The notes beneath the pieces were generated by a model. The model worked only from the letters and a program-made list of their open reading frames with translations, was not told the origin of the DNA and made no database searches. The position numbers and the translations under genes are program-made. This document shows, piece after piece, positions 6,320-41,542 of a stretch of DNA of 44,079 nt. Source of the DNA: Folioceros fuciformis (taxonomy: Eukaryota); contig JBNGIO010005378.1 of the NCBI GenBank assembly GCA_049999805.1, positions 1 through 44,079 on the forward strand. Direction: 5' to 3'. How positions within the stretch are numbered: position 1 is the stretch's first letter; every line of letters starts with the position of its first letter.

Positions 6320-7913
6320 TTACAGGTCATTCAAGTGATGCACAATCCCGTCTACATTGTCTTTGATTGTCTGGCGCAGTTCTTTAATCTGGTCATTCGA
6401 CCTGTCCAGCACCTGAGCCACTCTGTTCAGCCTGTCCACATCTTGGGCCATTTTTGCTGCCAGTTTCCCGTTCTCCCCCGTAGTTGTTTGCCTCTTATGT
6501 AATTTCTGCCCCAACTTTGTTTGCCTTCCCTTGTCTGCCTTTATTGTGCTCTTCGCGCTTGCGTGAGACTTCGGGGCTACGTTGAGTAGCTTTTCCTTTT
6601 CTACCTTCTTTGGAACACGTTCAGAATCTTCCTGTGAAGCATCACTCTTCCTCTTCCCTTTCCCCAATGTATGCTGAGGGGTTTCAATCTTTCCTCTCCT
6701 CAATGCATGCCGAGGGGTTTCAATCTTCCCTTTCCTCTGTGCATGTCCAGGGGTTTCAATTTTCCCTTTCCTCAAGGCATGCCGAGGGGTGTCAGATGAC
6801 ACTGGGGGACCTCTCCTTGGTCTTGGAGTCAAAGGACAAGGGTCCGAGTCTTGGTTGTTGCCTGGTAGACCGTGACGAGCCTGCTTCCCGGAACTCCTGG
6901 TGTCTCGTTTGGACGGGGTTGCACCACTTCTCTTCCCATGCTCCGCACTGGAGCCGAGTACTTTGGCTTCCTTCGCCACAACTGGCAAGGCAAGGCTGAT
7001 GTACCGATGCAGAAGAGCCTTGGCTGCTTGCGGCAACGCCCCATCCCTTGCTATCGTGGTCTTTACATAGCTTACTCTATGGCCAGCCCAGTTGAAGGTC
7101 TCGCCGTACTTCATGCTTCTTGCGAAAGCCAATGTTTGGCCAACAGGAAGTATTGAAGGGTGTCCTGCCAGGAACATCTTCTTCCTGTGCTCCCTTATGT
7201 ACTCTTGTAGCTGGGGCTGAAGACTATGGAGCAGTATTCCGTCGTTGATGCTGACAGTACCATTGTCCAGGCTTTCTTGTGTCATAAACTCCTCAACTTC
7301 CTTTCTCAGGTTCCTGCTCCCAGAGCCCGGAATTGAGACACCATGGGATGGCAAGCCAAGGACTCGGCCTACCACTTCGGGTTCCAACAGTAGCTGTGAT
7401 TCCCGATTGATCTGGAACATGGTGGGTGCTTTGTCTCCGCCATCATGGAAACCGGTAATGAAATAATTGTCACTGACAGCCACTGGTCTGCGAGAGTGAA
7501 AGGCGAAGGAATCTGGAGTACCTGGCCTTGTTAGGCAACCCAGCTTCATAATGAAGTTCCTATTTTTCTTCCATGACCCGGGCTCCTGACTCTCCCTGTT
7601 GAAGTCTTCAAGGTCTACCTCTGATCCCTCGTCTTGTAACACTCCCTCATCTGCCGGAACAGACTTTTCGAGTCTCTCGTCGTCTGTTGCCATGGGATCG
7701 TCCAGGCCGTCTTCTTCTGCTTTCACCCTCTCCTCTCGGTCATTCGCACCGCTGTTCATACTCCTCAAAGTTCTAGCCTGCGCAGCAAACGTTTGAGAGA
7801 CACTTAGCCATTCGCAGACACTGCTATTACGATAGATCGACGGCCACGTCACAAACAAAGGGACTAACATTGGGAGATCGAGGGGCTCTCGGTGTCGAGA
7901 CTTTCTTCACCAT
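6320..7913 (-). CDS. Unknown-family paralogue 1 (intact). Likely model: ATG 7913-7911, intron 7910-7778, exon 7777-6320
   Basis: 516-aa open frame with family motifs (RNFIMKLGCLT, FITGFHDG, LLLEPEVVGRVLGLPSHGVSIP, FNWAGHRV, LLHRYISLALP), a basic repeat tail and a C-terminal coiled-coil-like end. An ATG|GT donor and an in-frame CAG| acceptor are present. Confidence 0.8.
6654..6793 (-). repeat. 36-bp coding tandem repeat x4 encoding (TPRHALRKGKIE)n
   Basis: Seen in the DNA and in the translation TPRHALRKGKIE-TPGHAQRKGKIE-TPRHALRRGKIE-TPQHTLGKGKRK. Confidence 0.9.
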
Positions 7914-8501
7914 GACTGAAGCTAACGAGAGAGCCTTGCACCAAGATGAAAGGTGCCTATAACAGTCAAGCTGAAGAGCTTGAAGGGAGAAAGGATGCGA
8001 ACAGTCTCCACAATGCTTGCGTGTGTTGGGCAGTTAGCATCATTATTACAGATCGCAAGCCGCCTTAATTCACACATGTAAGGGTAGTTAGCATAATGGC
8101 AGAGAGTGGGAGTCATGTATCTATTTTGGACAGCACTTTCACAGGTGATTACGCTTGGAGTCTGGTACAAACATACTTAGCTCACCCCAGAGCTGAACGT
8201 CAGGAAATTGACACAGTCCGCACATACCTGCTGCTTTTCACCACAGGGAAACGCTGGATTGTTCCAATGTTAACTGACACAGCCTAGTCTAGCCGATCTC
8301 GAAAAAACACATGCATCCACAAATTGTCAAATTTCCATACGAAAGAGAATCCCTTTTAAGTTACATCCTTTCAAAAACAAAGCACAATGCACTCACAGAT
8401 GTCAGCGAGATCAATTGGCAATTGGCAAACCAAAATATCATCTTCCACAAAGCGCGTCCTTCCTCTTGCACTGATCAACGCTGGCAGCTCGCTTTCCTCT
8501 T

Positions 8502-9241
8502 TCAACATCCTGGCTGCTGTTCTTCGGACATGTTCTTCATCCTCTTGTTGGCCTAATTGACTCGGTTTCCTTTGCAAAGCTCCTCTTGAAAACAGACAAT
8601 CGACAGAGATTCCGAGCTTTGCCTGGCCCAAGAATTCACCTTGCTGCCTCTCAATGTACTCCCTGAGCTGCGCGTGTCCAGTCTACCTCAGATTGAAACC
8701 GCGATGGGAGGCTCGGTTTTGCTTCCAGGCTACTTTTGGCACGAGAAGCTGCTCCTTTTTAACTTTTCTCAGCGCATTCGGAACCTCCAGCCACTCGAGC
8801 TGCAGGCCGAGGACTCTTCCTGCAATTTCTGGCTCCAGAGACAGTAGAGTCTCGGAGCCATCGGCCATCCTCACTCTCACCATGGCCTTCAGGCCATCTT
8901 GGCTATCCTGGAATTCGGTAAGGGTGTGCTTATGATTCAGAGCGAAGGAGCGAGCTCCAAGTGCTGCCACCTCAGATTCCCAGTCCGGCAGGCCAGCTTG
9001 GAGAGGAAGCTTCTGGACTGTTTCCAATCTGGCTCCCTCTCCCGATTAGCTGGGGCTGGGGTTCTGCTAAAGCCTTTCTCATCATCCTGGCAATAAGCTG
9101 GTGTCTCCTGTGGGAAACGAATGGCTGGATTAGTAGCTCACTCTAAACGCTTGAAGTTCAGGAATACTGCAACTGTGAGAGAAGAAAAAGAAATGCTTCT
9201 GAATCAGGCATTCACGCATAACGTGCTTCTGGACTCACCAT
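8502..9241 (-). pseudogene. Unknown-family paralogue 2 (pseudogene: frameshifts, stops, internal deletion)
   Basis: ATG 9241-9239|GT...CAG|9107, then ETPAYCQDDE...WKQSRSFLSKLAC / HTLTEFQD...LLSLEPEIAGRVLGL...GFNLR*...LREYIER / CFQEE...VN*ANKRMKNMSEE. Closely similar to the 10.0-11.3 kb copy. Confidence 0.8.
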
Positions 9242-10017
9242 GATTTGAAGCTGGTGGCAAAGTTGCACCTAAGGCTTGCGCAAGTCGTTACAGTGGCATA
9301 CTTCGGATCGTAAGCTTGCAGGACAAGGCGGCTGGGAAGTAACATCGTCGAGCTGCTGGCATTTATTACTTGAGTCCATTAATTCAGACCGTGTCAATTG
9401 GGACAGGGCCTCCTGCAGTTTAGAGGCCATTACGACTGGACTTCGATACGCCCTAAGCTCAGACTGCTTCAAGATTGCAGCAACTCTTTCTAGCATTCAT
9501 GGCAGGCCTTCAGAAACTGCTCCAAGATTGCATCAGTTCGTTCTACTCAATTCTAAGAACATCTAGAGCAAGTAGCCCATTATCCATGGCAGTTCTCAAT
9601 AGCTTTGCAGCATGTCTTTGATACCCATCGTAGAACATGCTTCAAGCATGATCCGCGCCCCTCATTTCTGCTTCTGAGGTGAATGTAATGAGTATCAAAG
9701 TCCCCGAGCCTGAGCCTCTTACTACACACTCTACGCTGGCTCCTGCTCTTCCTCAGCTGCCGCTGAACATCTGGTACATCGTCAGTTCAAGCCCGTGACG
9801 AACGAGAGTAAATGGACACGCGCCGTGGATGAGTGCCCACGTTTAACGTTATGAAACGGCGAGTTTTTCAAAATGCTCACAACGAGAGCTTAGGCTTAGC
9901 TGATTTTGACAAACAAGGAGACACGCACACAGTCTCCTCTGTTCATACGACAATCAATGCGAAGTTGCATCCTATCAAAAATCAACACACAAATTTCCTC
10001 CTCCAACATCCTGACTG

Positions 10018-11293
10018 CTATTCTTCGGACATGTCGTGTCGCAGACTCCACAAGTACCTTGCTTGCTTGCTTCTTAAGATGGATCAACGGCTCAAGGCTC
10101 TGTCCCAAACGTGCACTAACGGTTCCATCAAATTCACTAACGTGAGCGAGAGTTCGTCCTCCACAGCAAGCTGCGGTGAACGGGCACACGCATCAGCCGG
10201 GTTTCTGCCGCCAGCTTTCCCGCAAGGATCGCACTCCCTTGAGGTCTCCTTTGCACCGGTGTGATCTAAGCGATCAGGCTTCACATGATGCTCCTCAGAG
10301 TGCTCTCGCAGTCGGTTCGACCGCCTTGGTGTCTCGACCTCGTCGTATTGCCTTTGAGAACCATAATCAGTCCGCAGTTTCTCAAACTCTTCTTCCAATC
10401 CCTTCCTCACATGGTTTTGCTGCTTCGTCCTTCGACCAGTTCCGGCTCGAAGCTTGGCCACAAAAGGCAACACCGACGGCAAGGCACAATCAAAGTATGA
10501 AAACAGCAGATCCTGCACTGGGATGCTCAACACCTTTCTTCTTGCGACCAGCTGCCTCATCACGTTCTTGATCCTCTTCTCGGCTCAATTGAATTGGATG
10601 TTGCTGAAATACTCCTCTTGGAAACAGAGCAAGTCGACTAGGGAAATCCCATTCTTCGTGTTTCCGAAGACTTCACGCTCGCGCCTCTCGATGTAGTCCC
10701 TCAGCCCCGGGTGATCGATGCTCTTCAGATTGAAGCCCCCTTGTGTATTGCGTGTTTTCCCATTTGATTTTGGCACGAGTACCCGCTCCTTGTCCTCGAG
10801 GTTCAGACCGTCCGGAATCTCCAGGCCCTCGAACGGCAGATCGAGGACTCTTCCAACGATTTCTGGTTCCAAAGACAGAAGTGTCTCGTGGCCATTAGCC
10901 AGCTGCACACGCACCATGGCTTCAAGGCCATGTCCTCCATTCTGGAATCCGGTTATGGTGTACTTGTTATGCACAGCGGCGGAGTGAGCGTCGAGCTCCT
11001 CTGCCTCAGATTCCTTGGTGAGGCAGGCCAGCTTGGAAAAGAAGCTTCTGGAGTGCCGCCGATTGGTGTTTTTCTCCCAACGAGTCGGCCTTCTCCCGAA
11101 ACGCTCGTCGTCATCCTGAGAGTACGCGAATGTGACCTGTCCAGAACAAAACGTTTGTCAATATCGTTGGATAATGGAGCGAACTCACTCAGAACTCTCA
11201 TCGTGCGATCTCACTCAAAACTCTTGAAAAGGATTCAACCGTCATTAAGACATGTTCATGTATTCAGTCAAAACTTCCTTCTCTACTGACCAT
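10018..11293 (-). pseudogene. Unknown-family paralogue 3 (frame intact apart from premature TGA). Model: ATG 11293-11291, intron 11290-11137, exon from 11136
   Basis: One continuous frame: VTFAYSQDDD...SFFSKLACLT...YTITGFQNG...LLSLEPEIVGRVLDLPFEGLEIP...IQFN*AEKRI...LLFSYFDCALP...ALSR*SILRSKQAR...DMSEE*. The TGA at 10587-10585 sits at the family NW position. Confidence 0.8.
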
Positions 11294-11424
11294 GGTTGAA
11301 GCTGGTGGCAATGTTGCACCCAGGCTGCTTCAAAAAATGCTTGCAACCGACCAAGCTGCATAGTGACCAGGCACGAGAAAGGTGGGGAGTAATCAGCAGC
11401 AGCAACAGGGTGGGACAAGACGCA

Positions 11425-12153: not shown

Positions 12154-13851
12154 TCAACGCTGTAACCTGTCACGAGCTTGGGAGCGTTTGTGTCGTACCC
12201 ACCGCAGAGCATTCTCCAAACCCGTCTCCAATATGGACCACAACAAGTCGTCCACCGATTTCATCCTACAAAGAGGGCCACACACTTGAGGTTCCACTTG
12301 AGCATCCATGGGGTCCGTGGAGGCCTGGGCGAACCCGGCAACACCCCTCCTATTGTCGTGTTGAGCGGTGGATCCGCNNNNNNNNNNGAACCCGGCAACA
12401 CCCCTCCTATTGTCGTGTTGAGCGGTGGATCCGCCGCGCACAAAATTCCCCTTATCAAACAGAAGGGTACGAGGGTTATAGTTGTTGAACCTCGCAGTTG
12501 TCCTCTTCCTGGACATCGTGGGTACCACAGGCTCGGCATCTCCCTCCTCCTGCCCTTTCTCAAGGAGTTCTTCTTCCAAGTCCTGTAAGTTCGAGATCCT
12601 CCTCTTGCGCCTCCTGGGCGAGGGCGTCTGAGGATCGGCATTTCGAGGCTCTGCCTGCTCCTCCTCAGAGATGATCTCGTCGCCCGAGTCGTCACTGGAC
12701 TCACTCTCGTGGTACTTGGGTTTAGGGTTGGTGTTCCGCGTGCTCAGTCTCCTGCGCTCAGGGTCTCCCTGATCCCCTTCTATCTCCTTGCCCTTCTGAG
12801 GCGGGTTCCCATCGCTTCCCCTGCCGGCATGGTCCTGGCAAGCCTCCTCCACCCCAACTACGACCGCAGCAGCAGGACCAGCTCCAGGACTAGGATCAGC
12901 CCCGGGACCAGCTTCAGGACTAGGATCAGCACCAGGACCAGTTCCAGAACCGGGACAAGCAGTAGGACCATCAGCGGGTCCACTCCCTTGACGAGTCACC
13001 CTAAATCTGTGCAACGCTGGCAAGGCAGCATCGATGTAGCTTTTGAGCACCGCCCGGAACGAGTCGCTTCCAACTCCACGCTTGTTCCGCAAGTTGGCCT
13101 TGATGCTCTCCACCCTCAACTCCGCCCAGTTATATTTCACCTTATGCTTGTGCTCCCTCATCAAGCAGAACGCGTCTCTTGTGCTGACGCCGCGTTGCCT
13201 ACAATCCAGAAATAGTTCCTGCTGCCTTTTGACTATGTGTTCAACAAGCGAAGGAGGCTTCATGCAGCTGAGCAGAAAGCCGCCATGCAAAACCCGGCAC
13301 TGGGATGAAAGCGAATCGACGTACTGATTGATTTCATCCCGGTCAGCACCGAGAAGCCGTGGTGGGACTGCGAGCCCCTGAAAATCCATCCCCAGGACAG
13401 TTCCCAGCATTGCCGGCTCTAGTGAAAGCAAAAGTTTCTCATTCACCTCCACATAGCTTCTGGTGCTCCACCCTCTGCCCTTCCCGGGTGCAGAGTCTCT
13501 GACCATCCTACCCCCTTCGTGAAACCCGGTGATGGTGTGCCTGCGGCTGAGTTTGATGTTGCATGCCTTGTGTCCTGCTTCTTGATGCTCTGTCGAAGAA
13601 GTGAAACAACCCAGGTCGCGGAGGAAGTTTCTGTCATCCTTCCAGCTCACGCTCTGTTCGGCCTCCTTTCCTGTGGTGCTCATCACTGCCCCTGCTGCGG
13701 TTTCCTGCTCCATTGTTCGGAAGCAGGAACTCTGGCAACAATTGTGAAAACAACGGTGTCGTTTGGCAAAGCAGGCAATATAAAAGCCACAATCATATTG
13801 CCAAAGCTGTTGCTCCCTTAAACTTGAGTGGACTCCGGTACTGCGCGACAT
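12154..13851 (-). CDS. Unknown-family paralogue 4 (intact; start may be the ATG at 13713; spans a 10-N gap)
   Basis: 565-aa frame with WKDDRNFLRDLGCFT, HTITGFHEG, LLSLEPAMLGTVLGMDFQGLAVP, KYNWAELRVESI and VLKSYIDAALP. It also has GPGADPSP repeats, acidic and basic (PRRRKRR) patches and a C-terminal LENALRWV motif. Confidence 0.8.
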   Translation of the reverse strand: MSRSTGVHSSLREQQLWQYDCGFYIACFAKRHRCFHNCCQSSCFRTMEQETAAGAVMSTTGKEAEQSVSWKDDRNFLRDLGCFTSSTEHQEAGHKACNIKLSRRHTITGFHEGGRMVRDSAPGKGRGWSTRSYVEVNEKLLLSLEPAMLGTVLGMDFQGLAVPPRLLGADRDEINQYVDSLSSQCRVLHGGFLLSCMKPPSLVEHIVKRQQELFLDCRQRGVSTRDAFCLMREHKHKVKYNWAELRVESIKANLRNKRGVGSDSFRAVLKSYIDAALPALHRFRVTRQGSGPADGPTACPGSGTGPGADPSPEAGPGADPSPGAGPAAAVVVGVEEACQDHAGRGSDGNPPQKGKEIEGDQGDPERRRLSTRNTNPKPKYHESESSDDSGDEIISEEEQAEPRNADPQTPSPRRRKRRISNLQDLEEELLEKGQEEGDAEPVVPTMSRKRTTARFNNYNPRTLLFDKGNFVRGGSTAQHDNRRGVAGFXXXXGSTAQHDNRRGVAGFAQASTDPMDAQVEPQVCGPLCRMKSVDDLLWSILETGLENALRWVRHKRSQARDRLQR

Positions 13852-14095
13852 TGGGTTGTCCTTTTTGGGTTGGTTTTGATGATTCCCTTGGTGGGAAAGT
13901 CACTCCCTTGCGATTTGCGACCATTGGGGTTGCTCCACGGGGTTCGTTTTTGTTAAGCCCTTTTGGGCATGTCACGCTCATGCAATTTGGTTGCTTTGCT
14001 TAAGCCCCTTGCTGGATTACCATGTCACCCGATTGCCACAGTCGGGATGCTTTTCTTAAGCCTCTAGCTGGATTAGTATGTCACTCGACTTGACT
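13851..14095. repeat. Degenerate ~60-bp tandem repeat (4 units) upstream of paralogue 4; related units at about 16785-16925 upstream of paralogue 5
   Basis: Recurring GGTTG...TAAGCCCYTTG..GG...GTCAC.C motif, e.g. GGTTGCTTTGCTTAAGCCCCTTGCTGGATTA (~13989) versus GGTTGCTTTCATTAAGCCCCTTGCTGGATTA (~16792). Confidence 0.65.
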
Positions 14096-14210
14096 GGTGG
14101 GTTTGAACCACAACCAACCCAAAAAAGGTTGCTTTGTTGGGTTGGTTCTGGGTTGAAATTTGGACTCATGTACGTGTGTATTACATGACAGACGTACTGG
14201 AGCATGAAGA

Positions 14211-14428
14211 GACGTGAATGCGTCGAGTGTGAGTGGCTTGGTTCTTGGATTCCTTGCCAACGCTCACATGCCATAAAATGTATGTACTGAGCAAGGGAGC
14301 CATGGCTCCCGGCTGGTGCACCACGCTCCGTTGAACAGGCTGCATTCAACACTGTGTCTGGAGTACCGGACACATTCGGAGCGTGAGAAAGGACCAGGGA
14401 CTCGAATGGCATTTATGGAATTGCAGAT
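14211..14428 (+). repeat. About 220-bp dispersed direct repeat, copy A (copy B at 17137-17358)
   Basis: The two segments are colinear from GACGTGAATGCGTCG to AATTGCAGAT, including the shared TTCGGAGCGTGAGAAAGGACCAGG. Confidence 0.9.
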
Positions 14429-14991: not shown

Positions 14992-16284
14992 TTAACTGCC
15001 AATGCGCATCCTCTTTCTCTGGACCCATCTCAGACAGCTCTCCAATCCTTTGTCTGCCATGCCCAGTGCTTTCTCAGTGCCCAGTGCCCAGATGCCCGCT
15101 GGTTTGAGCCAAGATACGCCTTCCGTAAACTCACACTTGACCCCATCCAGATTTACTCTGGGCCTCTTTGACGTCTTCAATATGTGGCCTCCTTTCAAAG
15201 GCTTGTAGTGATCCCTTGCTGTGTGCATCCGAATTCTACTGTGAAGGATCGACAGAGCCAGTTGAGCAGCGGTGACGCACTTGCTCAATGCTTTCAGCCA
15301 CGTGTTGTTGAACAAACGCGGGCCTGTCACACACTCCAACATTACTCCATCTGACTTCACTTTAGGCCTTTTCCATAGTTTGCTAGGTGACTGGTCTCGT
15401 GCAATGCGCCTCTTTGATCCCAATGCCTTGTCGTCATCCCTCGCCGTGTGCATTCGAAATCTTCTACTCTGAAGCCGAGACAGAGCCGGTTGAGCAGCAG
15501 TGATGTATTTCAGAAGGAAGGCTTCGATGAGTGGGCCTAATGTTTTGCGCTGTCTCGTCAACATCTTCTCCATGATATCAACTTTGTACTTCATCCAATT
15601 GTAGATCTCTCCATCGAACCACTCTCGCTTGAAAACGTAAGCATGTGCCACAGGAATACCTCCTTTGCGCCTCTTGCTTTCTGAAGCACAAAGCTGCTTC
15701 CTCCTTAACAAGACGTACCCTCTGAAGGCTTCCGTCTTCAGGCTCTCCACGGGTATCCCGGCGCTCACCCACCCGACTTGGTGAGGATTAATGGACTTCG
15801 AACAAGCAACCTGACATAAGAGATCTTTCTTCTGCTCTATGCTTAGAGACTTCGGGATGGGGATCCCTCCATAATCCATCCCAAGAAGCTCCCCTAATGA
15901 TTCGACATCCAGCGGCAAATTGAATCTCCCATCGATTTCGATCAAGCTCTGCAACATCTCTGTGCCCTCCTGGAAGCCCGTAATAGTGAACCCACCAACG
16001 TCATACCTGCAAGGCACCATGCGTGCAGTGGCTATGCTTCTGTCATCCTCGCTGTTAAAGTAACCCAACTTTAACAGAGTCTTCTTACTTATGATCCTCC
16101 CCGCTCTGCAAGTGCGTCCAGACTCCTTCTGCAGAAGCTTGTCGGCCTCCGATTTCCTGTGTGGTCTCGGCCCCATGGATTCCTGCTTTTCCCTTCTCCC
16201 TCCCAAGGCCTCACAAACCATTGAAAACGAACAGTTACCCTTCGATACCACTACTTGCTCACTGCAACCCTGAAAAATAGCCAC
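14992..16284 (-). CDS. Unknown-family paralogue 5 (intact; true start uncertain)
   Basis: 430-aa frame with LLKLGYF, FTITGFQEG, LPLDVESLGELLGMDYGGIPIP, EIYNWMKYKV, LLKYITAAQP and C-terminal GLESCLRWV. An in-frame acceptor TTTTCAG| precedes 16269; a possible ATG|GT lies at 16655-16653. Confidence 0.78.
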   Translation of the reverse strand: MAIFQGCSEQVVVSKGNCSFSMVCEALGGRREKQESMGPRPHRKSEADKLLQKESGRTCRAGRIISKKTLLKLGYFNSEDDRSIATARMVPCRYDVGGFTITGFQEGTEMLQSLIEIDGRFNLPLDVESLGELLGMDYGGIPIPKSLSIEQKKDLLCQVACSKSINPHQVGWVSAGIPVESLKTEAFRGYVLLRRKQLCASESKRRKGGIPVAHAYVFKREWFDGEIYNWMKYKVDIMEKMLTRQRKTLGPLIEAFLLKYITAAQPALSRLQSRRFRMHTARDDDKALGSKRRIARDQSPSKLWKRPKVKSDGVMLECVTGPRLFNNTWLKALSKCVTAAQLALSILHSRIRMHTARDHYKPLKGGHILKTSKRPRVNLDGVKCEFTEGVSWLKPAGIWALGTEKALGMADKGLESCLRWVQRKRMRIGS

Positions 16285-17096: not shown

Positions 17097-17136
17097 GTGG
17101 ATTGTACCCAGATATGTAGCGCGTGACAAGAGGCGT

Positions 17137-17358: not shown

Positions 17359-17639
17359 TGGAACTGCACAGCTGCAGCTTGCCACGACTCCACCTGTCAA
17401 CGTCTGGGGTACAACTAAAGAGACTTGATATGATGGGTGGCTCGATTTTGGATGTCACCGATTGGTATGGGCTTTTCACCTACCAGCAACATGAAGCTTA
17501 CAAAACTGCCTATCAACTCCACTGCTAGCCTCTAAAGATCCACCATCTTTGAGATACTGTAGGGTTTACAAACGAGGGACCCCTGCTCGAGGAAATCGCT
17601 GTACAAATGAATAATCGACCAACGTCAGATTCTCGTGCT

Positions 17640-17924
17640 TCAGCTCAGTAATGCAATCAGGGAATCCTTCAATCTCTTCTTGACGGGTTCTCCAGGATTT
17701 GGCATACAGGCTCTCCGGGTCCCCAACACCACCACTTGAATCAACATCCCGGCCAAACCCCACCTTGGTAGAATGGTGCCTCCTGTCATGAATGATCTCA
17801 TTTGACGTTGATGGGCAACAAAAACTCTTGCACAATGCACATTCATGGCTCCAATTGTGTCTACTCTAGCGGATATCTGGAGAGAAATCTCAAACAGTGG
17901 TAAGGAAGAATTACTCACCCGCAT
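17640..17924 (-). pseudogene. Internally deleted duplicate of paralogue 7 (start micro-exon plus 3' end only)
   Basis: It ends in VKKRLKDSLIALLS* versus VKKRLKDSLMRWLS* in the 19713 gene. It begins CTGCAAAATGCGG|GTGAGTA versus CTGCAAAATGCCG|GTGAGTA. The domain-coding core is absent. Confidence 0.75.
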
Positions 17925-18199
17925 TTTGCAGAGCCTGACCATGTATACAGCTAGACGGAGACGAGACTGCAGATGCAGCTTCAACCCTACGCCTGCTTCA
18001 ATCTGAGAAGCATGCAAAGCATGGTATCGTCAGTTTCTTATCCGAATGCAGAAACAGGCACAGCTCGGACAAGATCGATCTACAAACAAGTCAGCTATGA
18101 GCTCTGAGCGTGTAGGACTTCACAGTCTTCACACTGTCGCAGTGAAACGGACTTGATTATTCCCTTGATTAGACCATGCCATGGGAGCTGCAGAACGCA

Positions 18200-18600
18200 C
18201 GATTTTCCCAGGCTGGACAGGAGGCGTTGCAAACGTACAGTACTTAAGCCCTGAAACTGTTCTGCCAATGGCCGTCACTAGCATTGATTTGGTTCCGGAA
18301 GAGCAGGCAGGCCCGGCAGGCTTAAGAATTAGGAGACGGTAGCTTGGTTGTTTTTGGCTCTCCCAACCACTTTGTTAATCATCCAGGCTGTTGCTGATTC
18401 CTCCACCAGGCATGTAGATCTCCCCTTGGACCACGGGTCTGGAAGAGTGGATTAAAAGCGCACCAAGACATTGCATCAAACAGGAGTTCTCCATTGAGCT
18501 CTATTTTGAAGTCCGTGTCATCATCCTCGAATCCTGTTGTAGTGCACTTGACCCTCACAAGGTTACAGCAATCTGATCACTTACTCTGCCCAAGAAATCT
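18200..18600 (-). pseudogene. Degenerate unknown-family fragment
   Basis: Minus strand about 18550-18482 reads KCTTTGFEDDDTDFKIELNGELL, matching GYTITGYRDEEHEDLKVEVNGEFLL of paralogue 7. The 18185-18420 segment resembles 21228-21460. Confidence 0.6.
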
Positions 18601-19712: not shown

Positions 19713-20953
19713 TCAGCTCAGCCATCGCATCAGAGAATCCTTGAGTCTCTTCTTGACGGCTCTCCATGCTTTGACACACATGCCCGGACCCGAGTTCCCA
19801 ACACTACCAAACAAATCAACGTCCTGGCCAAGTCTCCCACTACCAGAGTCTTGTCTGCTGCCATTAAAGACAGAGGAAAGCAAGGGGGCCTCATGATAAG
19901 ACTGGGCTTCAACAAACTCGTGGACCAGTTTTCGCCTCTTGGACCTCCTCCACCGGAACTGAGATTGGACGTCTCTTTGCTCCTCCGTTTGCCTCTCCCC
20001 TTGGTTGTTTTCGGGTCTTCTCCTTCTTTCATGACACCGTCCTTCGTAAACCTTAACCAATCTCCTAGCAGGTTTGGGCTCCACGGGCACTGGCAGAGCA
20101 GCATCGAAGAACCTTGTTAGCAAAGACCTGGCAACGACGTTCAGCTGTTGGTTTTTCCGTAGAGTGGCTCGAATGGATCCCAGAGCGCTTTCTGCCCACC
20201 CATACTTTTCACCGTGGAGAAGCTCCCTCCTCATGCAATAGGCGTACCTTTTGGCAACACCTCTATTTGCGTCGTCACCGTGAGATATATCAACAAAGAC
20301 CTCCCCGGCTCGTTTGGTAACGTATGTTCGAAGGTTAGGTGTGAAGGTCTTCAGAGTCACAGCTCCACGTCCCATGAAGGATACAGATTCTGAACATCCC
20401 TCCCTAGAAAGGGAAACAGATTTCAACAGTTCTTGCTTCTGGGACATGTTGAGAAAACGTGGCACTGGCTGCCCACCAAAGTCTAAGCCGATGACTCTCC
20501 CCACGACCTTTGGTCGGAGAGAAAGCAGGAACTCACCATTCACCTCTACTTTCAGATCCTCATGCTCCTCATCCCGATACCCGGTTATGGTGTACCCGTC
20601 GCTCACATGGGTGCTGCATTTTGAGAGGTCTGCTGGTTCGGTGAAGCCGCCCGAGAAAGCTGCGTTCTTCCAGCCTCGGTTACGCTCCTGACTTCCACCA
20701 AAGCAGAGTTCATCGGGTGGCATCTTCGGTGCATCTTGTTCCGGCAGTAAGGTCTCCAAAATTTCGGTGCTACCGCTGTACTCTTGCTTCACAGGACGAC
20801 AAGCATGACCATAAGTTGCGTGAACTGTGAAGTCCGGAGTTGATACACAACAAGAACTCCACGGTGAATATTCACAGCTACAGAATGATTCTGTTCCAGT
20901 GGGTAACTGTGCAGCAAATGCTGCTTTGGAAAGGAACAACTACTCACCGGCAT
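19713..20953 (-). CDS. Unknown-family paralogue 7 (intact). Likely model: ATGCCG 20953-20948, intron 20947-20787, exon 20786-19713
   Basis: 408-aa frame with YTITGYRD, LLSLRPKVVGRVIGLDFGGQPVP, EKYGWAE, LLTRFFDAALP and a basic RRSKRRK patch. The GTGAGT donor is strong; the AAG acceptor is inferred from phase. Confidence 0.78.
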
Positions 20954-22620: not shown

Positions 22621-25600
22621 TCAGGTATGCTGCCGAGTGGAGTCCGAAATTGAAGCATATCGTGCTTTCTTTAGCTCCAACCTTAGTGCTTCCAGCAATC
22701 CAGTCAGCCGTACTTCGTCTTGCCTCTGGCCTCTCACCAGAAACGAGTGCAACTGCTGCTCATGCTTTATCCAACTCTGACCAGGCTTCTTCCAGGCACC
22801 TGCTCTCTGTCGCAACTCATGAACTTCCCTTGCCTGGTCCCACATGCCAGCGTTCTGATATATGTTGGCCATCAGCACATAGGGTGCAGCATGCTCTGTC
22901 TCGATACTCATGGCACAGTCAAAGACACGCCTTGCCAGCACCACGTTGCCATGCTTCTGGCAGGCACCCAGCAAGCACAACCAGACAGGCAATGTAGGCT
23001 GCATCGGCATGCTAGAGAGCAAATCCTCTGCCTTCCTGAAGAGTCCTGCCCGGGCAACAAGATCTAAGACACAAACATAATGCTCCACGTCTGCAGAGAT
23101 TTTATGATCTCTGCCCATGGCTTCAAAGTATTCAAGCCCCTCGTTCACCATGCCAGCATTGCCACATGCGGAGAGGAGAGCCATGAACGTAATTTTATCT
23201 GGTGTCACACCTGCTAGGCACATGTCCTTGAAACACTGCGTGCTCCTCCTACAATCACCGTGGCGCGCATACCCAGAGAGTAATGCAGTCCATGACACCA
23301 CATCAGGCTGATGGAGAGAATCGAATACGTTTTGAGCGTCCACCATGCTCCCACATTTGCCGTAGGCATGCACAAGCGTGTTTGCGACAGGAAGGCTATT
23401 GTTGAATTCACTCCGAGCAACCTCTTGGTGGATGTGGATGCATACATCCAAGGCTCCAGTGCAGCTGCATGCTTCCAGCATGACAACAAATGTAGTCTCA
23501 TCTGCTTTTACACCTTCTGAACACATTTGTGTATAGAGTTCCCATACCCTGTCTCCTTGGCCATACTGAGAATAAGCTGTGATCATAGCATTCCATGATG
23601 CTGCCTCTCGCATGGACAATTCATCGAAAACATGCTTCGCATCTTTAAGACTGCCACATCTTGCATAGACTGTAACCAGGCAGTTACAAACTGGCATGTC
23701 TGATCCATAACCCAGCTGAACCGTTGTAGCATGTACGTCTTTTGCTTTGTGAAGAGTTTCTGCTTTGATGAACGGTGAGTCTTGCAAACTGCCCTCCTCA
23801 TTTTCAGCGAGGATTCCACATGCTTGGAGAACACTAATAAGAGTCCATACATTTGGATCGATTCCTTCCGCCTGCATTTCATAATACAAATGCAGTGCCT
23901 CCTCTGCCCGGCCCTGTTGCACATGGGCCGCAAGCATGGCAGTCCATGAGACCACATCTCGGTGAGATAACGTGTGAAACACATCTCTTGCATCCCCAAA
24001 GCTGCCACACTTAGCATACATGCTAACGAGAGAACTGCTCACAAACGCATCTGTTTCAAAACCTCTGCTAACAGCTTCTGCGTGTATTTCTTTTACCCTA
24101 TGCAACAACTTCACTTTCATTTGCTGCCCATGCACCAGCACATTCTCTTCTCTGGCAAGAGTGCTCTCACATGCCTGGAGAGTACCAACTACTGTGCGAG
24201 AAGTTGGCTTGACTCCTTCCCCTTGCATTTGCTCGTAAAACTGCAGAGCTCTTTCGCCCTGCCCCTCATGACAGTAAGCAGCAAGCATGGCATTCCAGGA
24301 GACCACATCACGAGCAGACAGGCTGTCAAAAACCCAATGAGCATCTCTCGTGCTACCACACTTCGCATACATGCTGACCAACGTGTTACCAACAAACACA
24401 TCTGAGCAGAAGCGCCCAACAACAGATTCAGCATGAATCTCTTTCCCTTTGTGAAGACAGTTCAATTTGACATTCTGCCCTTCAATTAGTACAGCATCCT
24501 CTCCTCCGGCAAGGATGCCGCACATTTGAAGAGCACTTACCAAGGTCCGAGCATTTGGACAGATACCTTCTGCTTGCATACGAGCATACATCTGCAAGCC
24601 CTGTCCTGCTTCGTTTTGCAGAGCACATGCTGCAAGCATCGCGTTCCATGACACTACACTGCGATGAGGTAGCTGATCAAATACCTGGTGAGCATCCAAC
24701 AGGCTCCCACACTTGGCATACATGCTTACCAAAATACTGCCAACGAACACATCCGTATCAAAGCCCCCAGCAGCAACTTGTGCATGTATTTCCTTCCCTT
24801 TCTGAAGGTACTGTAGTCTAAGGACCTGCCCGTTAACAATGCTACTTGTTTCCTTCTCCGCACAAATAACAATAGCACGGAGCGCGCTAACAAAGGTCCG
24901 GGCATTTGGGCTGACATTCTCCAACTGCATATTGGCATAAACTTGCAGGGCACGTTCTCCATCATTTTGCTGAACATAAGCGGTAAGCATAGCATTCCAC
25001 GAGACAACATTCCGGTCGCGCACACGGTCAAACACCTCTTGGGCATCCACCACACTCCCGCACTTGGCGTACATGCTGACCAAACTGGTCCCAACAAAGG
25101 TATCCAATTCCAGCCCACATTCCCGAGCATGAGCATGAATACATCGGCCCTTTTCCAGGTCTTCCACCAAGCTGCAAGCTTTCAGCAAGGTGACAAACGT
25201 AAACCTGTCAGGCTCCACACCTTCCTCCTGCATTCGCTCATAGCACGACAGAGCCTCCTGACACTTTCCCGCCTTGACATACCCTGAAACAATGGCTGTC
25301 CACGAGAAAACTGTCCGTGTCGACAGCTTCTGAAACACACTCAGCCCATCCTCAATGCTTCCACAGTTCACCAGAGTGGTAACAGCAAGCTCACCCAAGC
25401 TCCTGTTCCACTCCAACCCATGTTTTGCCAAATGGGCCAGCACCTTCTTAGCCTCGGGAAGTGCTCTTTGCTTCATGCACGCATGTAACAGGTTCCTGTA
25501 CGTGCTCACTGATGGAACACTGCCCTGCTCGTCCATGTACAAAAGGGAGTCCATAGCTCTGTCCAGACATCCCTCCCTGCATAATGCCTCTACCTCAGAA

Positions 25601-25692
25601 GCCTCCACAGAAGTCGTACTCGAACCTCTGCAAACTACAACCAAAGGCCTCAACCCAGACGATGGTGCATTGCACCACCATCCAATCCGCAT
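22621..25692 (-). CDS. PLS-class pentatricopeptide repeat protein with E/E+ extension and no DYW domain (organellar RNA-editing factor type)
   Basis: 1023-aa single-exon ORF of P-L-S triplets (VVSWNAML / TFV..L.AC / DVFVG..LVSMYAKCGS). It has E motifs (HYVCVLDLVARAG, WLCLLGAC, YVLMANIY) and a PG box (KKPGQSWI), and ends before any HxE/CxxC deaminase motif. Confidence 0.95.
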   Translation of the reverse strand: MRIGWWCNAPSSGLRPLVVVCRGSSTTSVEASEVEALCREGCLDRAMDSLLYMDEQGSVPSVSTYRNLLHACMKQRALPEAKKVLAHLAKHGLEWNRSLGELAVTTLVNCGSIEDGLSVFQKLSTRTVFSWTAIVSGYVKAGKCQEALSCYERMQEEGVEPDRFTFVTLLKACSLVEDLEKGRCIHAHARECGLELDTFVGTSLVSMYAKCGSVVDAQEVFDRVRDRNVVSWNAMLTAYVQQNDGERALQVYANMQLENVSPNARTFVSALRAIVICAEKETSSIVNGQVLRLQYLQKGKEIHAQVAAGGFDTDVFVGSILVSMYAKCGSLLDAHQVFDQLPHRSVVSWNAMLAACALQNEAGQGLQMYARMQAEGICPNARTLVSALQMCGILAGGEDAVLIEGQNVKLNCLHKGKEIHAESVVGRFCSDVFVGNTLVSMYAKCGSTRDAHWVFDSLSARDVVSWNAMLAAYCHEGQGERALQFYEQMQGEGVKPTSRTVVGTLQACESTLAREENVLVHGQQMKVKLLHRVKEIHAEAVSRGFETDAFVSSSLVSMYAKCGSFGDARDVFHTLSHRDVVSWTAMLAAHVQQGRAEEALHLYYEMQAEGIDPNVWTLISVLQACGILAENEEGSLQDSPFIKAETLHKAKDVHATTVQLGYGSDMPVCNCLVTVYARCGSLKDAKHVFDELSMREAASWNAMITAYSQYGQGDRVWELYTQMCSEGVKADETTFVVMLEACSCTGALDVCIHIHQEVARSEFNNSLPVANTLVHAYGKCGSMVDAQNVFDSLHQPDVVSWTALLSGYARHGDCRRSTQCFKDMCLAGVTPDKITFMALLSACGNAGMVNEGLEYFEAMGRDHKISADVEHYVCVLDLVARAGLFRKAEDLLSSMPMQPTLPVWLCLLGACQKHGNVVLARRVFDCAMSIETEHAAPYVLMANIYQNAGMWDQAREVHELRQRAGAWKKPGQSWIKHEQQLHSFLVRGQRQDEVRLTGLLEALRLELKKARYASISDSTRQHT

Positions 25693-26040
25693 GACTGCTG
25701 TGATCGAGCTCTAAACCGTGCAAATCCCACGCGCCACTCTCCTCCGAGGGCCCCTCGGAGCCATCGGCCCAGCCTCCGGTGCTCTCTTGTATTCCGATCC
25801 GAGCTGCCGGTCCAGCGCGGCTCGGCTACGCTAGGCTCGGCTCGGCTCGTCTCCAGGTCGGCATAAAGGGAAACATTAGCCCGAGCTTTATTTCAATAGA
25901 ACACCGACCTGCTCACTTGTACATCTCTGTTTCCCCTTAGCTTTCTCCTGCCTTTGTCGTCTGCGCTTTCCCCTTCGCTTGTTGCCCACTCGCCTTCGTC
26001 TCCTCGCCTGCCCTTCCTGCTGTCCATCTAGACGTCCGCC

Positions 26041-27003
26041 ATGGCTGCGTGCATAGATGTGAGCCCTCCTTCTAAACCTTCCTTTCTCACTGGCATGGAC
26101 TCCGTGAAACCAACCCTGTCTGAGATGTTGAGCCCGGCCGTCGTCTTCCTCCGACCCGACGTTCCAGCTCCCTTTGCCGCCATAGGAAAGCTGTTTGATT
26201 ATCTGCGTTCCTCGCCGGAGGATGCTGCATCCCTCAACGCAAGCTACCCCGTTCGCGGCGTCTTCAAAACAGCCGCCTCTGAGAATCCTAGTTGCGACCA
26301 GAAGCTTACTATTGATCTTTCCGCTAGCCGCGTATCCCGCATCCCCGTCGGTCTGCGCTCAACCCTGGCCAGCCATGGCCTCGAGGAGATCCTCGCCTTT
26401 TTCCAGGCAACTATTCTTCAGTTTGTTCCGAATGTTATCTCTGCACTAAGCGCCGTGGCCGGCGGAGGCCTGGGTTCCCTGCACAAGTCGCAGAACTTCA
26501 CCTTCCGACTCTGTGATTACAGTCCTTCGACTGCTGCCCCGGCGAGCTCCAAGGGGTGCGGGGAGCACACAGACTACGGTACATTCGCCATCATTTTTCA
26601 GGACGGGCATGCGGGGCTGGAGGCCGAGGTTCCAGATGCGCCGGGCACCTGGGTACCGATTCCCGGAGATGCCACAGTTCTTCTGTGCGGCTGGTGCGGG
26701 CTCATCCTTAGCGGCGGGCGTATTTGCGCAGTGAGGCACCGCGTGCGGCGTGTGCCGGGAGTTCGTCGGCTCTCTGCTGTCCTGTTTGTTGCGCCGGATG
26801 TCGACGTTGTGCTCAAGCCAGTAAAGGTTGATGAGGAATGCAGGGCGTTCTCGGACGCAGTAATGGCCGGGGAGGTGACCGTGGAGTGGTTCAAGGAGGT
26901 CATGGGGAGGTCATGGCGCTTCAGAGAGGGCAACGGGACCTTGGAGGACGGAGAGGTGGAGATCAGCCAGGATCAGCGTATCGAGAATCTTGTCTGGGCG
27001 TGA
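26041..27003 (+). CDS. 2-oxoglutarate/Fe(II)-dependent dioxygenase, single exon
   Basis: 320 aa with the HxD (HTDYGTF), distal His (RHRV) and RxS (RLS) motifs, plus GLE...W.P.P of the 2OG-FeII_Oxy fold. Confidence 0.9.
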   Translation: MAACIDVSPPSKPSFLTGMDSVKPTLSEMLSPAVVFLRPDVPAPFAAIGKLFDYLRSSPEDAASLNASYPVRGVFKTAASENPSCDQKLTIDLSASRVSRIPVGLRSTLASHGLEEILAFFQATILQFVPNVISALSAVAGGGLGSLHKSQNFTFRLCDYSPSTAAPASSKGCGEHTDYGTFAIIFQDGHAGLEAEVPDAPGTWVPIPGDATVLLCGWCGLILSGGRICAVRHRVRRVPGVRRLSAVLFVAPDVDVVLKPVKVDEECRAFSDAVMAGEVTVEWFKEVMGRSWRFREGNGTLEDGEVEISQDQRIENLVWA

Positions 27004-28129
27004 AGCCGAGGACGTTCTACGAGAGCAACATCAACTCTGAACACAAGGAAAGTTCATGCTCAAGTTGTGAGCCCTGTACATATGTATATGGATTTCTCCA
27101 GACTTTTAGTGACGCTCGGGCAAGCTTAGGTGCATATTACTGCTACCAGGTGTGCATATAGACATCTTGCCGTAAACACAGGTCTGCATGCAGGCGTGGT
27201 TGCTTCTGGAGTACTTGGGAAGTCTCATCATCACACGGTTTCCGAGGATTATAACGCCATAGTTGATCAATAAAATTGTTTTTGTGTCCACCAAGCTTCG
27301 GAATCGCCTTTTTGTGATGCCTCCAGTCTTCGACACCTCGGTTTGAAGTCCTGCGCAGTGGCGGGGGACCTGCTCTCAGAAAGCAGAGTGTAGATATAAC
27401 AGATATAACAGCATACGCGAGGCGAGCCTTCCTTTAGACTTCAGAGAGACCTGAGTGCCAGGAAAGTGGGTTGCCACTGGCTAGCTACTCCTGGTTCATT
27501 CCGGATGGTGGAAGGCGGACTGTGAACACTCCAGCGTACCCTCGCAAAATCACTTATAGTTGAAAGTAGAACTGGAAGTGAGGTGTGCTGGTAGATAAGG
27601 ATCCATGTTCCACTAAATGCGTAGTACTGCAACTTAGCTCGCCAAGACACGAGCGTGGAGACCAGTGACGTCATCTGTGGAAGTGAGGTGGAACCCGTAT
27701 CTTCGAGCTAGTCGAAGATTCGTAGATCCCATTTTCCGTTCTGGAGGATGCAGAACCTCTACCCCCTTTGGGAGAGCCTTAGGCCCTTGCCTGCTTCAAC
27801 CCTAATACCACATCCAGGCAGCGGGTTCATGTGATACCTCGCGAGTCCCTCGGGAGAAACAACAAGGAGCCCAATCTGTTCAACCATTCAACTAGCAGCA
27901 GTGGCATTGTTGGAGGACTTGCTCACAAGACCATAAAAAGCGCTTGCATAGTTCCTCACCATCCAGTTCCACATTCGCACTCCGATCAAGGGAGGCGTTA
28001 AGATCAAGGGAGGCCGATCGCGAAAACAACACGATTTGGACTTGCTCCGTGGTGTTGAGCTTGATACGGAAAGCAGCGTCTTCAAGACACGCAGATGAAC
28101 GGGTTCATCCTTCACCTCTCTTCGAACTG

Positions 28130-28350
28130 AAGACTCCAATTCCAACGCCGAGCTCTTTCCTCTCACCGCGGATTACCGCAATGAAAAACGCCGTGGTTTT
28201 CTTCTCCTCCCCCGCCTTCGACAATCCTACTTGCGACCAGAAATCCATCACCGAGCTCTCTCCCATTCGCACATCACGCTTCCCCATCACCTGCGCTCTG
28301 CGCCGTCTTGCGCCGGCGAGACATGACCTGACGAGATCGTTTTCATGTTC
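28130..28350 (+). pseudogene. Decayed, internally deleted duplicate of the 5' part of the 2OG dioxygenase
   Basis: PSSFLS...AVVFF / AFDNPTCDQKSITELSPIRTSRFPI...RHDL aligns with PSFLT...AVVFL / ASENPSCDQKLTIDLSASRVSRIPV...SHGL of 26041-27003. The DNA AATCCTA(C/G)TTGCGACCAGAA is shared. Confidence 0.75.
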
Positions 28351-28807
28351 ACCGTAATTGCGGCAGCAAAGCATATGCCTGTATGCGCATTGTATCCTCG
28401 TACCGTTTCCGCGTGTTTATCAAGGATTTGTAGATCAGTCTTTGGAGTATAGGACAGATCACTACAGAGAGCATTTACGGATGCACAGTGGGGCAGACAT
28501 GTCTGCCGCGCACCCATGCACACTCACAGATGCACAGGAGGGCAGACATGTCAGGAGTGCACGCATGCACTCTCACAATAGCATCTTCAACTGGAGCTAT
28601 TCAAATTGAGGGATCTGCAGTCTTGCCGGTAGAGATGGAAGTGCGGAGAACTGCTGTTGAGGCCTCGCAGACTGAGAGAAGTGACGTCATCTGGAGGCCC
28701 AGCTGTCGGGATCTTGGCCAGTTGTAGGTACCTATGCAGTAGGTACCTATGCAGGTACTGGTTCCTCGGTTCTGGGACAGATGGTTTTGAAGTTCTGATT
28801 CTCCTGC

Positions 28808-30361
28808 TTGACGTGGTCGGGGAAAGAAACAGATGTACATACGTCTATGTCCAGCGAGATGAGGAGCGAAGGACTGGAATATGGTGAAGACATGGGAGTT
28901 GAATACAGCAAGCCGACAGTGACAAGGACCGTGCCGTTGCTGGCCCGCTCTTCACCTTCCGAAGAGGAGGAACTCATCCAGAACGACCTTCCTGGCATCG
29001 AGCAGCCGACGTGGAACGTACGACCCGGGCGATGGGAGAAGTCTGTGGAGGAAAAGGTCCGAGGACGGGAAGTTGGCTTCCTCAACAGATTGAGGAAGCC
29101 CGTAGCCCTGCTCAAAGACTGGAAGATCGTAGGCCATCACACTGGCGAACAGGGATCCGGGAGCCCTGACATGCTTCAGATCAACGATTCTTTTGCTGTG
29201 CATGTGGTGTCCCTGGACGAAGAGGCAGTGGGAGAAATCCTGGGCCTGTCGTACACTGGCGATCAGGTTTTCAGCGCACAGATCGCTGGTGCTGAAGAAG
29301 CCTCCACCATGGTGGCATTTGTGGGGAAGTATGTGACTCCGACCAGCAAACATCGGGCTCCCTTCTACTCCAACCAGTGGGATATGTATGTGTGGGTGGA
29401 GTGCATCATACCACAATTCCGAGCCTACGTCCAGGAGCACGTGAGGAGGCTCTTCGTGCCCACCACTGCGGTGTGCCCTGTCTGGGTGGCGTTTTATCTG
29501 GCCAAAAGCCGGTACGAGAACAAGAAGTTTAACTGGGCTCGGAACAGAATTGAGAACGCTGTGCAGACAGTCCTGGTCGAGAGGAAGTTTCATGGCGAAT
29601 TCGCGAAACAAGCTATGGATCTTCTGGCGAGTTACAGCCGACTGGCAGTCGGCGTGGCCGGTGGTGCACAGAGCCAAGGGGAGACGTGCTGGGCCCATGT
29701 GGAGTCGGAGGGCGGTGAGAGAAGGCGGGTCTTGCGCAAGAGGGTGAGGACTCCGGCAGAGGAAAGAAGGCGGTCCAGCCGGATCCTGCATGCACATATT
29801 GACAATCTGGAGATGTTTGATGTTGTCGATCAGGAGAAGGGTGCAGATCCGGGGCCACCAGGAGACGCCGGAAAGGTGTCAAGCCCACCGAGCCGTCACC
29901 TTGGAAGGAAGGCGGGAAAGAAAACCCCTGGTGGCGATGCCGTCCAGGAGGCTACTGGTGGAAGCCAGAGCAAGAGGCTGAAGGCGGCGTCGAGGAAAGG
30001 CTCCAAACAGGGTCCCACGGTTTGCTCGGGGAAAGACCAGGATGATGCAGTTGAAGGTCAAGCTCGGCAGCCTAGAGATCTGGAAGCCAAGGAGCAACGA
30101 ATCACAGCCATGGAAAGGGAATGTGACGCGAAGGAGCAGCAAATCAATGCCAAGGACAGAGCCCTGGAAGTGAGGGACACGCAAATAAGAGCCCTGGAAA
30201 TGCAGATCGAGGCCAAAGAGCAGCAACTGAGAAGCATGGAAGCGGACTGGGCTGAGGAAAGGAAAATGTTCAAGGGGATCATTCATCATCTCTCAAAGCC
30301 TACTCACATTGAGTTTGGCGGCCGTCGTAAAAGTCCCCCGTATACCGGGCTCCGTCCATGA
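28808..30361 (+). CDS. Unknown-family paralogue 9 (intact, inverted, most divergent; first ATG 28847), C-terminal coiled coil
   Basis: 517-aa frame with WKIVGHH, MLQIND, SLDEEAVGEILGLSYTG, FRAYVQEHVRRLF, KFNWARNRI and LLASYSRLA, followed by heptad repeats LEAKEQRI/CDAKEQQI/IEAKEQQL. Confidence 0.78.
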   Translation: MTWSGKETDVHTSMSSEMRSEGLEYGEDMGVEYSKPTVTRTVPLLARSSPSEEEELIQNDLPGIEQPTWNVRPGRWEKSVEEKVRGREVGFLNRLRKPVALLKDWKIVGHHTGEQGSGSPDMLQINDSFAVHVVSLDEEAVGEILGLSYTGDQVFSAQIAGAEEASTMVAFVGKYVTPTSKHRAPFYSNQWDMYVWVECIIPQFRAYVQEHVRRLFVPTTAVCPVWVAFYLAKSRYENKKFNWARNRIENAVQTVLVERKFHGEFAKQAMDLLASYSRLAVGVAGGAQSQGETCWAHVESEGGERRRVLRKRVRTPAEERRRSSRILHAHIDNLEMFDVVDQEKGADPGPPGDAGKVSSPPSRHLGRKAGKKTPGGDAVQEATGGSQSKRLKAASRKGSKQGPTVCSGKDQDDAVEGQARQPRDLEAKEQRITAMERECDAKEQQINAKDRALEVRDTQIRALEMQIEAKEQQLRSMEADWAEERKMFKGIIHHLSKPTHIEFGGRRKSPPYTGLRP

Positions 30362-41540: not shown

Positions 41541-41542
41541 AC

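Follow-up and report, generated by a model that had tools for sequence, protein, structure and literature searches.

A transcribed tandem array of deeply diverged paralogues in Folioceros fuciformis encodes an unannotated basic domain with faint resemblance to VANC and MAIN

A cluster of long open reading frames that share a set of motifs and little else raises the question of whether its members are host genes, accessory genes of transposons, or frames kept open by chance. Such a cluster occurs in the window, the whole 44,079-nt stretch of Folioceros fuciformis DNA analysed here (contig JBNGIO010005378.1). A preliminary description had claimed about 10 copies, five of them intact and about five dead. 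All five intact ORFs were located as claimed and have in common a domain of ~210 aa, and the array of live and dead copies was recovered, but only three copies are clearly dead, and together with one scrap these make 8-9 units rather than ~10. The start given for the last intact ORF, 28808, falls within a stop-to-stop frame opening at 28799, but the first ATG is at 28847. The features are as follows.

3351-3704: zf-RVT piece, flanking the block
6320..7870, minus strand: copy A, intact frame encoding 516 aa, with the domain at 6971-7597
6652-6794, in the tail of copy A: 36-nt (12-aa) tandem repeat; the tail is basic and its end helical, coiled-coil-like
8374..9269, minus strand: copy G, pseudogene fragment; HMM match at 8686-9045
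9994..11320, minus strand: copy F, coding part at 10087-11157; in-frame stop at 10585-10587
12154..13851, minus strand: copy B, intact frame, with the domain at 13006-13668
12867-12947, in the acidic tail of copy B: 30-nt repeat
13982..14428, minus strand: upstream region of B, 84-87% identical to the upstream region of C (16785-17358), with a ~55-nt direct repeat inside
14992..16221, minus strand: copy C, intact frame encoding 409 aa, with the domain at 15466-16104
15196-15275 and 15421-15503, in the basic tail of copy C: two similar stretches, an internal duplication
17631..18427, minus strand: copy H, remnant whose 3' end, first exon and promoter resemble those of D (self-BLASTN)
18478..18576, minus strand: scrap, possible N-terminal part of the domain, weak (TBLASTN 41% over 34 aa, E 0.009)
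19713..20953, minus strand: copy D, two coding exons for 359 aa, with the domain at 20082-20711; single-frame ORF at 19713-20723
28847..30361, plus strand: copy E, intact frame encoding 504 aa and oriented opposite to A-D, with the domain at 29009-29662
38737-43204: copia element, flanking the block

The intact ORFs, compared pairwise, gave BLASTP scores of 59-97 bits over 170-380 residues in seven of the 10 pairs of A-E; E matched A strongly (72 bits) and B, C and D weakly (24-32 bits). All of the motifs listed in the preliminary description were seen in the alignments of A-E, namely W..xxF..LG, (Y/F)TITG(F/Y), L.L.P..(V/L)G.(V/I)LG(L/M)...G..(V/I)P, L..Y(I/V)..R...(L/V)F, (F/Y)NWA and LL..Y(I)..ALP. 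When all six-frame pieces of the window were searched with an HMM of the intact domains of A-E, F (97.7 bits, E 4.6e-29) and G (34 bits, E 1.5e-9) were recovered, and every piece beyond A-G had an E value of at least 0.75. Protein identity among the copies is 23-33%, a level at which synonymous sites are saturated, and branch lengths of the domain are 0.8-3 changes per site. A maximum-likelihood tree of 13 domains left eight of its 10 inner branches, and the question of whether the expansion is lineage-specific, unresolved; it paired only A with E (77/88), P0001_N with P0006 and P0001_C with P0004, and E is the sister of A.

Duplication in the array was local, as self-BLASTN linked F with G, D with H, and the upstream region of B with that of C. 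Copy F gave its HMM match at 10588-11157 and resumes with its last part at 10087-10584, beyond a single in-frame stop. Copy G is a shortened duplicate of F (8529-9020 against 10561-11055, 70% identical over 500 nt) which has an in-frame stop and keeps the initial two thirds of the domain, without the FNWA part. In copy H the domain-bearing ~1 kb has been deleted, and the first exon persists as an ATG followed by a GTGAGT donor (17924), the same ATG-plus-donor junction as in D.

Four of the copies are transcribed. Sequencing run X3 contains three CT..AC joints (minus-strand GT..AG) at 20786>20948, 21950>22068 and 22196>22336, which are absent from the DNA run X1, whose contigs continue unbroken through all three sites; because of these spliced joints, X3 was taken as RNA-derived. 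The mapped part of the window took in B, C, D and E, copy A lying outside it, and X3 contigs covered B (12549-13734), D (19377-20786 joined to 20948-21147) and E (28823-29421), with read depth also over C. Copy D is spliced: its first exon is ATG-CCG (20953-20948), followed by a GT-AG intron of 161 nt (20947-20787) and by exon 2 (20786-19713), and the joint, found in X3 only, retains the frame to give 359 aa within a transcript contig of 19377-21147. X3 depth was 0 at 13735-14401 and 16403-19070, near 0 at 15736-16402 and low over F, values that were not counted as silence.

The encoded proteins would consist of a basic alpha/beta globular domain of ~210 aa, a mostly basic low-complexity tail and, at the end, an amphipathic helix or coiled coil. 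The pI of the domain is 9.0-9.7 in all five, at most an indirect hint of DNA binding; the basic or acidic tails, NLS-like patches and coiled-coil ends that had been described were borne out by basic tails in four of the five (B being acidic), K/R clusters in all five, helices predicted near the end of D (249-274 and 314-335), and coiled-coil-type Pfam noise matches at the termini of A and E. A C-terminal helix of LRWV type is common to B, C and D, and the tail of E ends in a coiled-coil-like EAKEQ repeat. The tails, which often contain K/R patches and peptide repeats in tandem, appear to be the fast-changing part. The domain folds confidently in prediction, with pLDDT 89.7 and pTM 0.86 for A (AF2 with 14 sequences) and scores of 89-97 over the domain blocks in the model of D.

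The domain is also rare. It matched no curated Pfam family, and among 1.84 billion representative proteins only eight relatives were found, all unnamed singletons; homologues are present in other assemblies. A word-indexed protein search gave no match with the B domain, and with a 14-sequence profile at E <= 10 gave only P0006 and P0007, both known relatives. The same threshold yielded no match of the family profile among PDB sequences, and none of the 21 pattern matches in a scan of metagenome contigs was confirmed. Protein P0008 (1773 aa, E 6.5e-5) was rejected as a relative, since its match was spurious: P0008 is a repeat protein, and only a stretch of 30 residues in which the motif EYTITGY recurs was aligned.

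While the preliminary description saw a resemblance to PMD, DUF1985 and Transposase_32 proteins, sequence searches gave nothing for it: none of 14 family members matched PF09331, PF10536 or transposon-accessory families at E <= 10, none of the five full ORFs matched PF09331 at E <= 1, and Transposase_32 was found neither in the scanned ORFs nor in the family members. When models of two paralogues were compared with 48,161 chains, the chain of VANC21 in complex with DNA came first, with 158-179 residues aligned though a low score, and for both models its alignment was 2-3 times longer than any other among the matches listed. Foldseek against the PDB gave best E values of 0.52 and 0.25 for the two models, and VANC21 was absent from the matches listed. 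In a language-model (ESM) search with D, DUF1985 clusters were among the nearest neighbours, PMD clusters accounted for two of 30 matches (0.91), and a further cluster without a name (0.94) had automatically been labelled PMD; the search with the B domain gave at best 0.87 to unrelated clusters, a low recognition, and neither DUF1985 nor PMD. The family contains a stretch, hydrophobic-x-x-(I/V)LG(L/M)-x3-G-x2-(V/I), which we take to resemble a PMD motif. The link of the family to PMD and DUF1985 is weak.

In Arabidopsis, VANDAL transposons (MuDR-type) encode the VANC proteins, which counter silencing; they contain DUF1985 (PF09331), and VANC21 has been solved together with its target DNA (PDB 9LNK). 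In the passages of PMC5735166 drawn on here, VANC proteins are described as having conserved domains and variable regions in which tandem peptide repeats abound, with DUF287 as a second conserved domain, which Pfam detected in no family member. Similarly, the parts of PMC13547354 used here give VANC21 a predicted self-association via a coiled coil and describe VANC as a structural homologue of MAIN. Both groups pair a conserved globular domain with fast-changing sequence that contains tandem peptide repeats, and both have helical or coiled-coil segments and paralogues that diverge rapidly; the tail repeats of A and B and the terminal helices of D make the architecture parallel to that of VANC. 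However, VANC genes lie beside a transposase (VANA) and VANB, whereas the family has neither adjoining and is arrayed in tandem as host genes may be, with ordinary genes around it, and VANC is described, in the same part of PMC13547354, as dicot-specific, whereas this organism is not a dicot.

The PMD proteins MAIN, MAIL1 and MAIL2 (PMD-C, PF10536) resemble the family in being encoded by stand-alone genes with one large domain as the sole recognisable part, but the family has no PF10536 match and no fusion to, or neighbour of, a PP7-type phosphatase, and while PMD is widespread in angiosperms according to the section of PMC7156037 consulted, the family comes from what is apparently a non-seed land plant. 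A preprint (bioRxiv 10.1101/2024.09.27.615353), in the part cited here, reports that PMD-C of MAIL1 resembles DUF1985 of VANC and that PMD-C is associated with specific DNA motifs. The portion of the literature covered here describes PMD and DUF1985 proteins from flowering plants and treats as debated whether the module originated as a host gene or in a transposon.

Transposon accessory genes, for instance those of VANDAL-like elements without TIRs whose old insertions decayed into the present array, are an improbable source of these ORFs. The nearest structural and feature leads are families borne by transposons, VANDAL elements are known to lack long TIRs, dead copies stand among live ones, and the zf-RVT piece and the copia element lie beside the block. 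Yet the window holds 18 ORFs of at least 150 aa, of which 14 were scanned with Pfam (the others being three antisense overlaps and one ORF across an N run), and these 14 included no MuDR-type or other DNA-transposon transposase in the 44 kb and, as mobile-element ORFs, only three pieces of the one copia retroelement outside the array. As the preliminary description had stated, no transposase flanks the copies, and neither inverted repeats nor LTR-like direct repeats of at least 30 nt were found flanking them in 4000-33000. Duplication was local, PPR, 2OG oxygenase and WEE1-like kinase genes are interspersed, and identities of 23-33% are unlike a young high-copy burst. That the ORFs are non-functional, either transcribed pseudogenes or chance frames in GC-rich DNA, is highly improbable: GC-rich antisense ORFs of 155-281 aa do occur in the window and 3-4 copies are clearly dead, but five frames, 336-565 codons long, have remained open at such low identity and despite tails that do not align, the conserved motifs lie inside a confidently folding domain, the spliced mRNA retains the frame, and there are homologues in other assemblies.

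Greater weight, although we doubt it, goes to a new fold in an orphan, lineage-specific family of basic and probably nucleic-acid-binding or structural proteins unrelated to transposon accessory domains, with the resemblance to VANC21 and DUF1985/PMD due to chance. Against chance, one chain of 48,161 topped both searches with 2-3 times the aligned length of the others listed, and this chain belongs to the very family that the ESM features of D indicate independently. We give about an even chance to a lineage-restricted host family whose domain is likely DNA-binding and a very distant relative of DUF1985 (VANC) and PMD (MAIN, MAIL), and whose proteins act as nuclear chromatin factors modulating silencing. 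Under this host-family reading, which partly supports the domesticated, lineage-expanded family first proposed, local tandem duplication would have both expanded the family and let it decay, leaving five live and 3-4 dead copies; the proteins, probably nuclear and probably DNA-binding, may multimerise and be directed by sequence to chromatin, with paralogues diverging in their choice of target, and they may be an early offshoot of the VANC/MAIN fold. No 8-10-mer was shared by four or more of seven upstream regions, which thus offered no candidate target.

A bolder version, which we hold as speculative and rather unlikely, would make the array an ancient, pre-angiosperm branch of VANC/MAIN, expressed from host genes, whose paralogues are sequence-specific anti-silencing or silencing-boundary factors that diversify through tandem duplication while in conflict either with transposons or with the silencing machinery. 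If true, it would date the origin of the module to long before the flowering plants and show a host-gene state without any transposon carrier. To our knowledge, no plant factors other than PMD and DUF1985 proteins recognise short DNA motifs so as to oppose silencing by DNA methylation or Polycomb. An expressed, transposase-free, fast-diversifying array with a faintly VANC-like fold in a non-seed plant would allow ideas on the age and the ancestral state of the module to be tested. Even if the likeness to VANC were due to chance, a confidently folding, unannotated family almost without relatives would be a clean target for work on structure and function.

The sequence of copy B contains a run of N (12378-12387) together with its 47-nt duplicate, and the joint 12330>12388 was found in both X1 and X3. 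The N run and duplicate are an assembly artefact, without which the ORF of B loses 19 codons. Its likely start may be the ATG at 13713. One X3 contig ends at 13734, a hint at most of the 5' end of B.

All five long open reading frames (ORFs) named in a preliminary description, hereafter A to E, are present at the places claimed for them, and the motifs attributed to them all fall within a shared region about 210 residues long. In BLASTP, seven of the ten pairs among A to E matched at 59-97 bits, with E joined to the family via A (72 bits) versus 24-32 bits against B, C and D. When all six-frame pieces of the window were scanned with a profile of the five domains, two extra copies, F and G, were recovered, and no further piece had an E-value below 0.75. 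The members found by these searches, self-BLASTN and TBLASTN are as follows.

Members of the family in the window
6320-7870, minus strand: copy A, intact ORF
8686-9045: copy G, fragment (34 bits, five-domain profile)
10588-11157, continuing in 10087-10584: copy F, one in-frame stop (97.7 bits, five-domain profile)
12154-13851, minus strand: copy B, intact ORF
14992-16221, minus strand: copy C, intact ORF
17631-18427: copy H, D-like 3' end, first exon and promoter, domain deleted (self-BLASTN)
18478-18576: weak scrap (TBLASTN)
19713-20723, minus strand: copy D, intact ORF
28847-30361, plus strand: copy E, intact ORF

The array thus comprises five live copies, three clearly dead ones and one scrap, with fewer dead copies than the five or so first described. 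Copy G is a shortened duplicate of F (70% identity over 500 nt, self-BLASTN), and the regions upstream of B and C share 84-87% identity (self-BLASTN). A unit of about 55 nt containing GGCTTAA lies within these B and C regions, twice in tandem upstream of B (13982-14092) and once upstream of C (16785-16839); no motif is common to the sequences upstream of all family members.

The domain is rare. No member matched any Pfam family, the only signals being coiled-coil-type noise in the A and E tails, and a HMMER search of 1.84 billion representative proteins gave nine matches at E <= 0.001, eight of which are real relatives (P0001-P0007 and P0009; 133-822 aa). All eight are nameless singleton clusters out of assembled public runs; P0008 was rejected as a spurious match. 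P0001, of 822 aa, holds two domain copies in one protein, and P0001 and P0004 are each recorded on an 8,688-base contig; these records hint that another organism, too, has a tandem pair and a duplicated domain. The 13-domain tree did not resolve, and its terminal branches measure 0.8-3 changes per site; among the copies in the window only A and E pair, weakly, in agreement with the I(V/I)HHL-type ends common to these two copies, the ends of B, C, D and H being a terminal helix of LRWV type.

Expression was assessed by comparing contigs of an RNA-like run (X3) and a DNA run (X1) with the window over 10400-30399, a range that leaves copy A outside. X3 has three joints with CT..AC ends, that is, GT..AG on the minus strand, whereas X1 lacks them and its contigs are continuous across the same sites, thus X3 contains spliced RNA. 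X3 contigs cover B (12549-13734), D (19377-20786 joined to 20948-21147) and E (28823-29421), and X3 depth is also present over C and over two neighbouring genes, for a PPR protein and a 2OG oxygenase. In D, the main exon is preceded by an intron of 161 nt (20947-20787) and a first exon that ends ATG-CCG, and the junction is in frame, giving a protein of 359 aa; the frame opened by a more upstream ATG of the first exon is just four codons long. The ATG-plus-GTGAGT junction of D is retained in remnant H. We regard the existence and the expression of the family as firmly established. Both runs omit 57 nt in B (12330 joined to 12388), which indicates that the segment 12331-12387, made up of a 10-N run and an exact 47-nt duplicate around it, is an assembly artefact and that the real B is 19 codons shorter than its raw ORF. 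The X3 contig of B ends 21 nt upstream of an internal ATG at 13713, at most a hint that translation starts there.

AlphaFold2, run on the A domain from 14 sequences, gave a model in which a small sheet at the N terminus leads into a helical body (mean pLDDT 89.7, pTM 0.86), and the full-length D model has the same confident domain followed by a disordered basic linker and long helices (249-274 and 314-335). The domains are basic in all five proteins (pI 9.0-9.7). Tails had been described as basic or acidic with coiled-coil ends: four of five are basic, D has terminal helices, and the coiled-coil-type Pfam matches at the ends of A and E are at noise level. Tandem repeats occur in the tails of A and B, and C has an internal duplication.

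A likeness to the Plant Mobile Domain (PMD) and DUF1985 had been proposed from motifs, and the evidence on it is divided. Foldseek found no match in the PDB for the A and D models, but an independent aligner that covered 48,161 representative chains placed 9lnk_A (VANC21, an anti-silencing DUF1985 protein of VANDAL transposons, with its target DNA) first for both, at a low structural score. When D residues 1-220 were used as query in a protein-language-model search, 30 clusters scored 0.9 or above, all from Streptophyta, with DUF1985 in seven and PMD in two; the three best reached 0.94 (185-196 shared features), one of them being auto-named plant mobile domain. The same kind of search with the B domain, against named clusters only, gave nothing related (best 0.87, recognition low), so that the lead was replicated in one of two paralogues. 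Every standard sequence or Foldseek test left a kinship with VANC or MAIN undetected. Two weak, partly independent pointers lead to the same small superfamily, and we consider kinship with the VANC/MAIN fold slightly favoured. PMD is reported to be widespread in angiosperms (PMC7156037), the PMD-C of MAIL1 to resemble the DUF1985 of VANC, with PMD-C proteins located at specific DNA motifs (bioRxiv 10.1101/2024.09.27.615353), and VANC to be structurally homologous to MAIN, with predicted coiled-coil self-association (PMC13547354). VANC is further described as conserved domains plus variable regions full of tandem peptide repeats (PMC5735166), and the family parallels this build with a basic globular domain, a variable tail with repeats and terminal helices. 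By analogy, its members may be nuclear, DNA-binding, multimeric factors that would act on silencing.

Within this window, the copies are likely host genes rather than a pile-up of transposons. As had been claimed, terminal repeats are missing around them, no inverted or LTR-like repeat of at least 30 nt bracketing the copies. The window is plant nuclear DNA, with about 50% G+C in a block at about 6-36 kb versus about 40% in both flanks (1-6000 and 36000-44079).

Other features of the window
3351-3704: zf-RVT remnant, LINE-type, in the flank
22621-25692, minus strand: PLS-class PPR gene with E motif, in the block
26041-27003, plus strand: 2OG-Fe(II) oxygenase, single ORF, in the block
33228-34571, minus strand: WEE1-like kinase, in the block
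35179-36778: several tandem repeats, in the flank
38737-43204: copia element (gag, integrase-region and RVT_2 pieces, interrupted by N runs), in the flank

The best named relatives of the kinase, from a moss, a lycophyte, liverworts, ferns, a zygnematophyte alga and Ginkgo, are 48-51% identical, and one further record reaches 66%. We take the window to derive from a land plant that is not a seed plant. Its single unbroken ORF of 447 aa covers 96-99% of the relatives' alignments; Arabidopsis WEE1 has many introns, and an intron-free WEE1 is unusual in plants. Downstream of the PPR stop (22621) lie two minus-strand GT-AG introns (21951-22067 and 22197-22335), both carried by an X3 contig over the gene (22068-22196 joined to 22336-24544), and these belong either to a spliced 3' UTR or to additional exons; as the ORF stops right after the E motif, a C-terminal part may conceivably be encoded separately. 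Inside the gene, at 22803-24724, both runs show many odd joints and loose ends, most likely because contig assembly cross-joined PPR repeats or paralogues, not because of real rearrangements.
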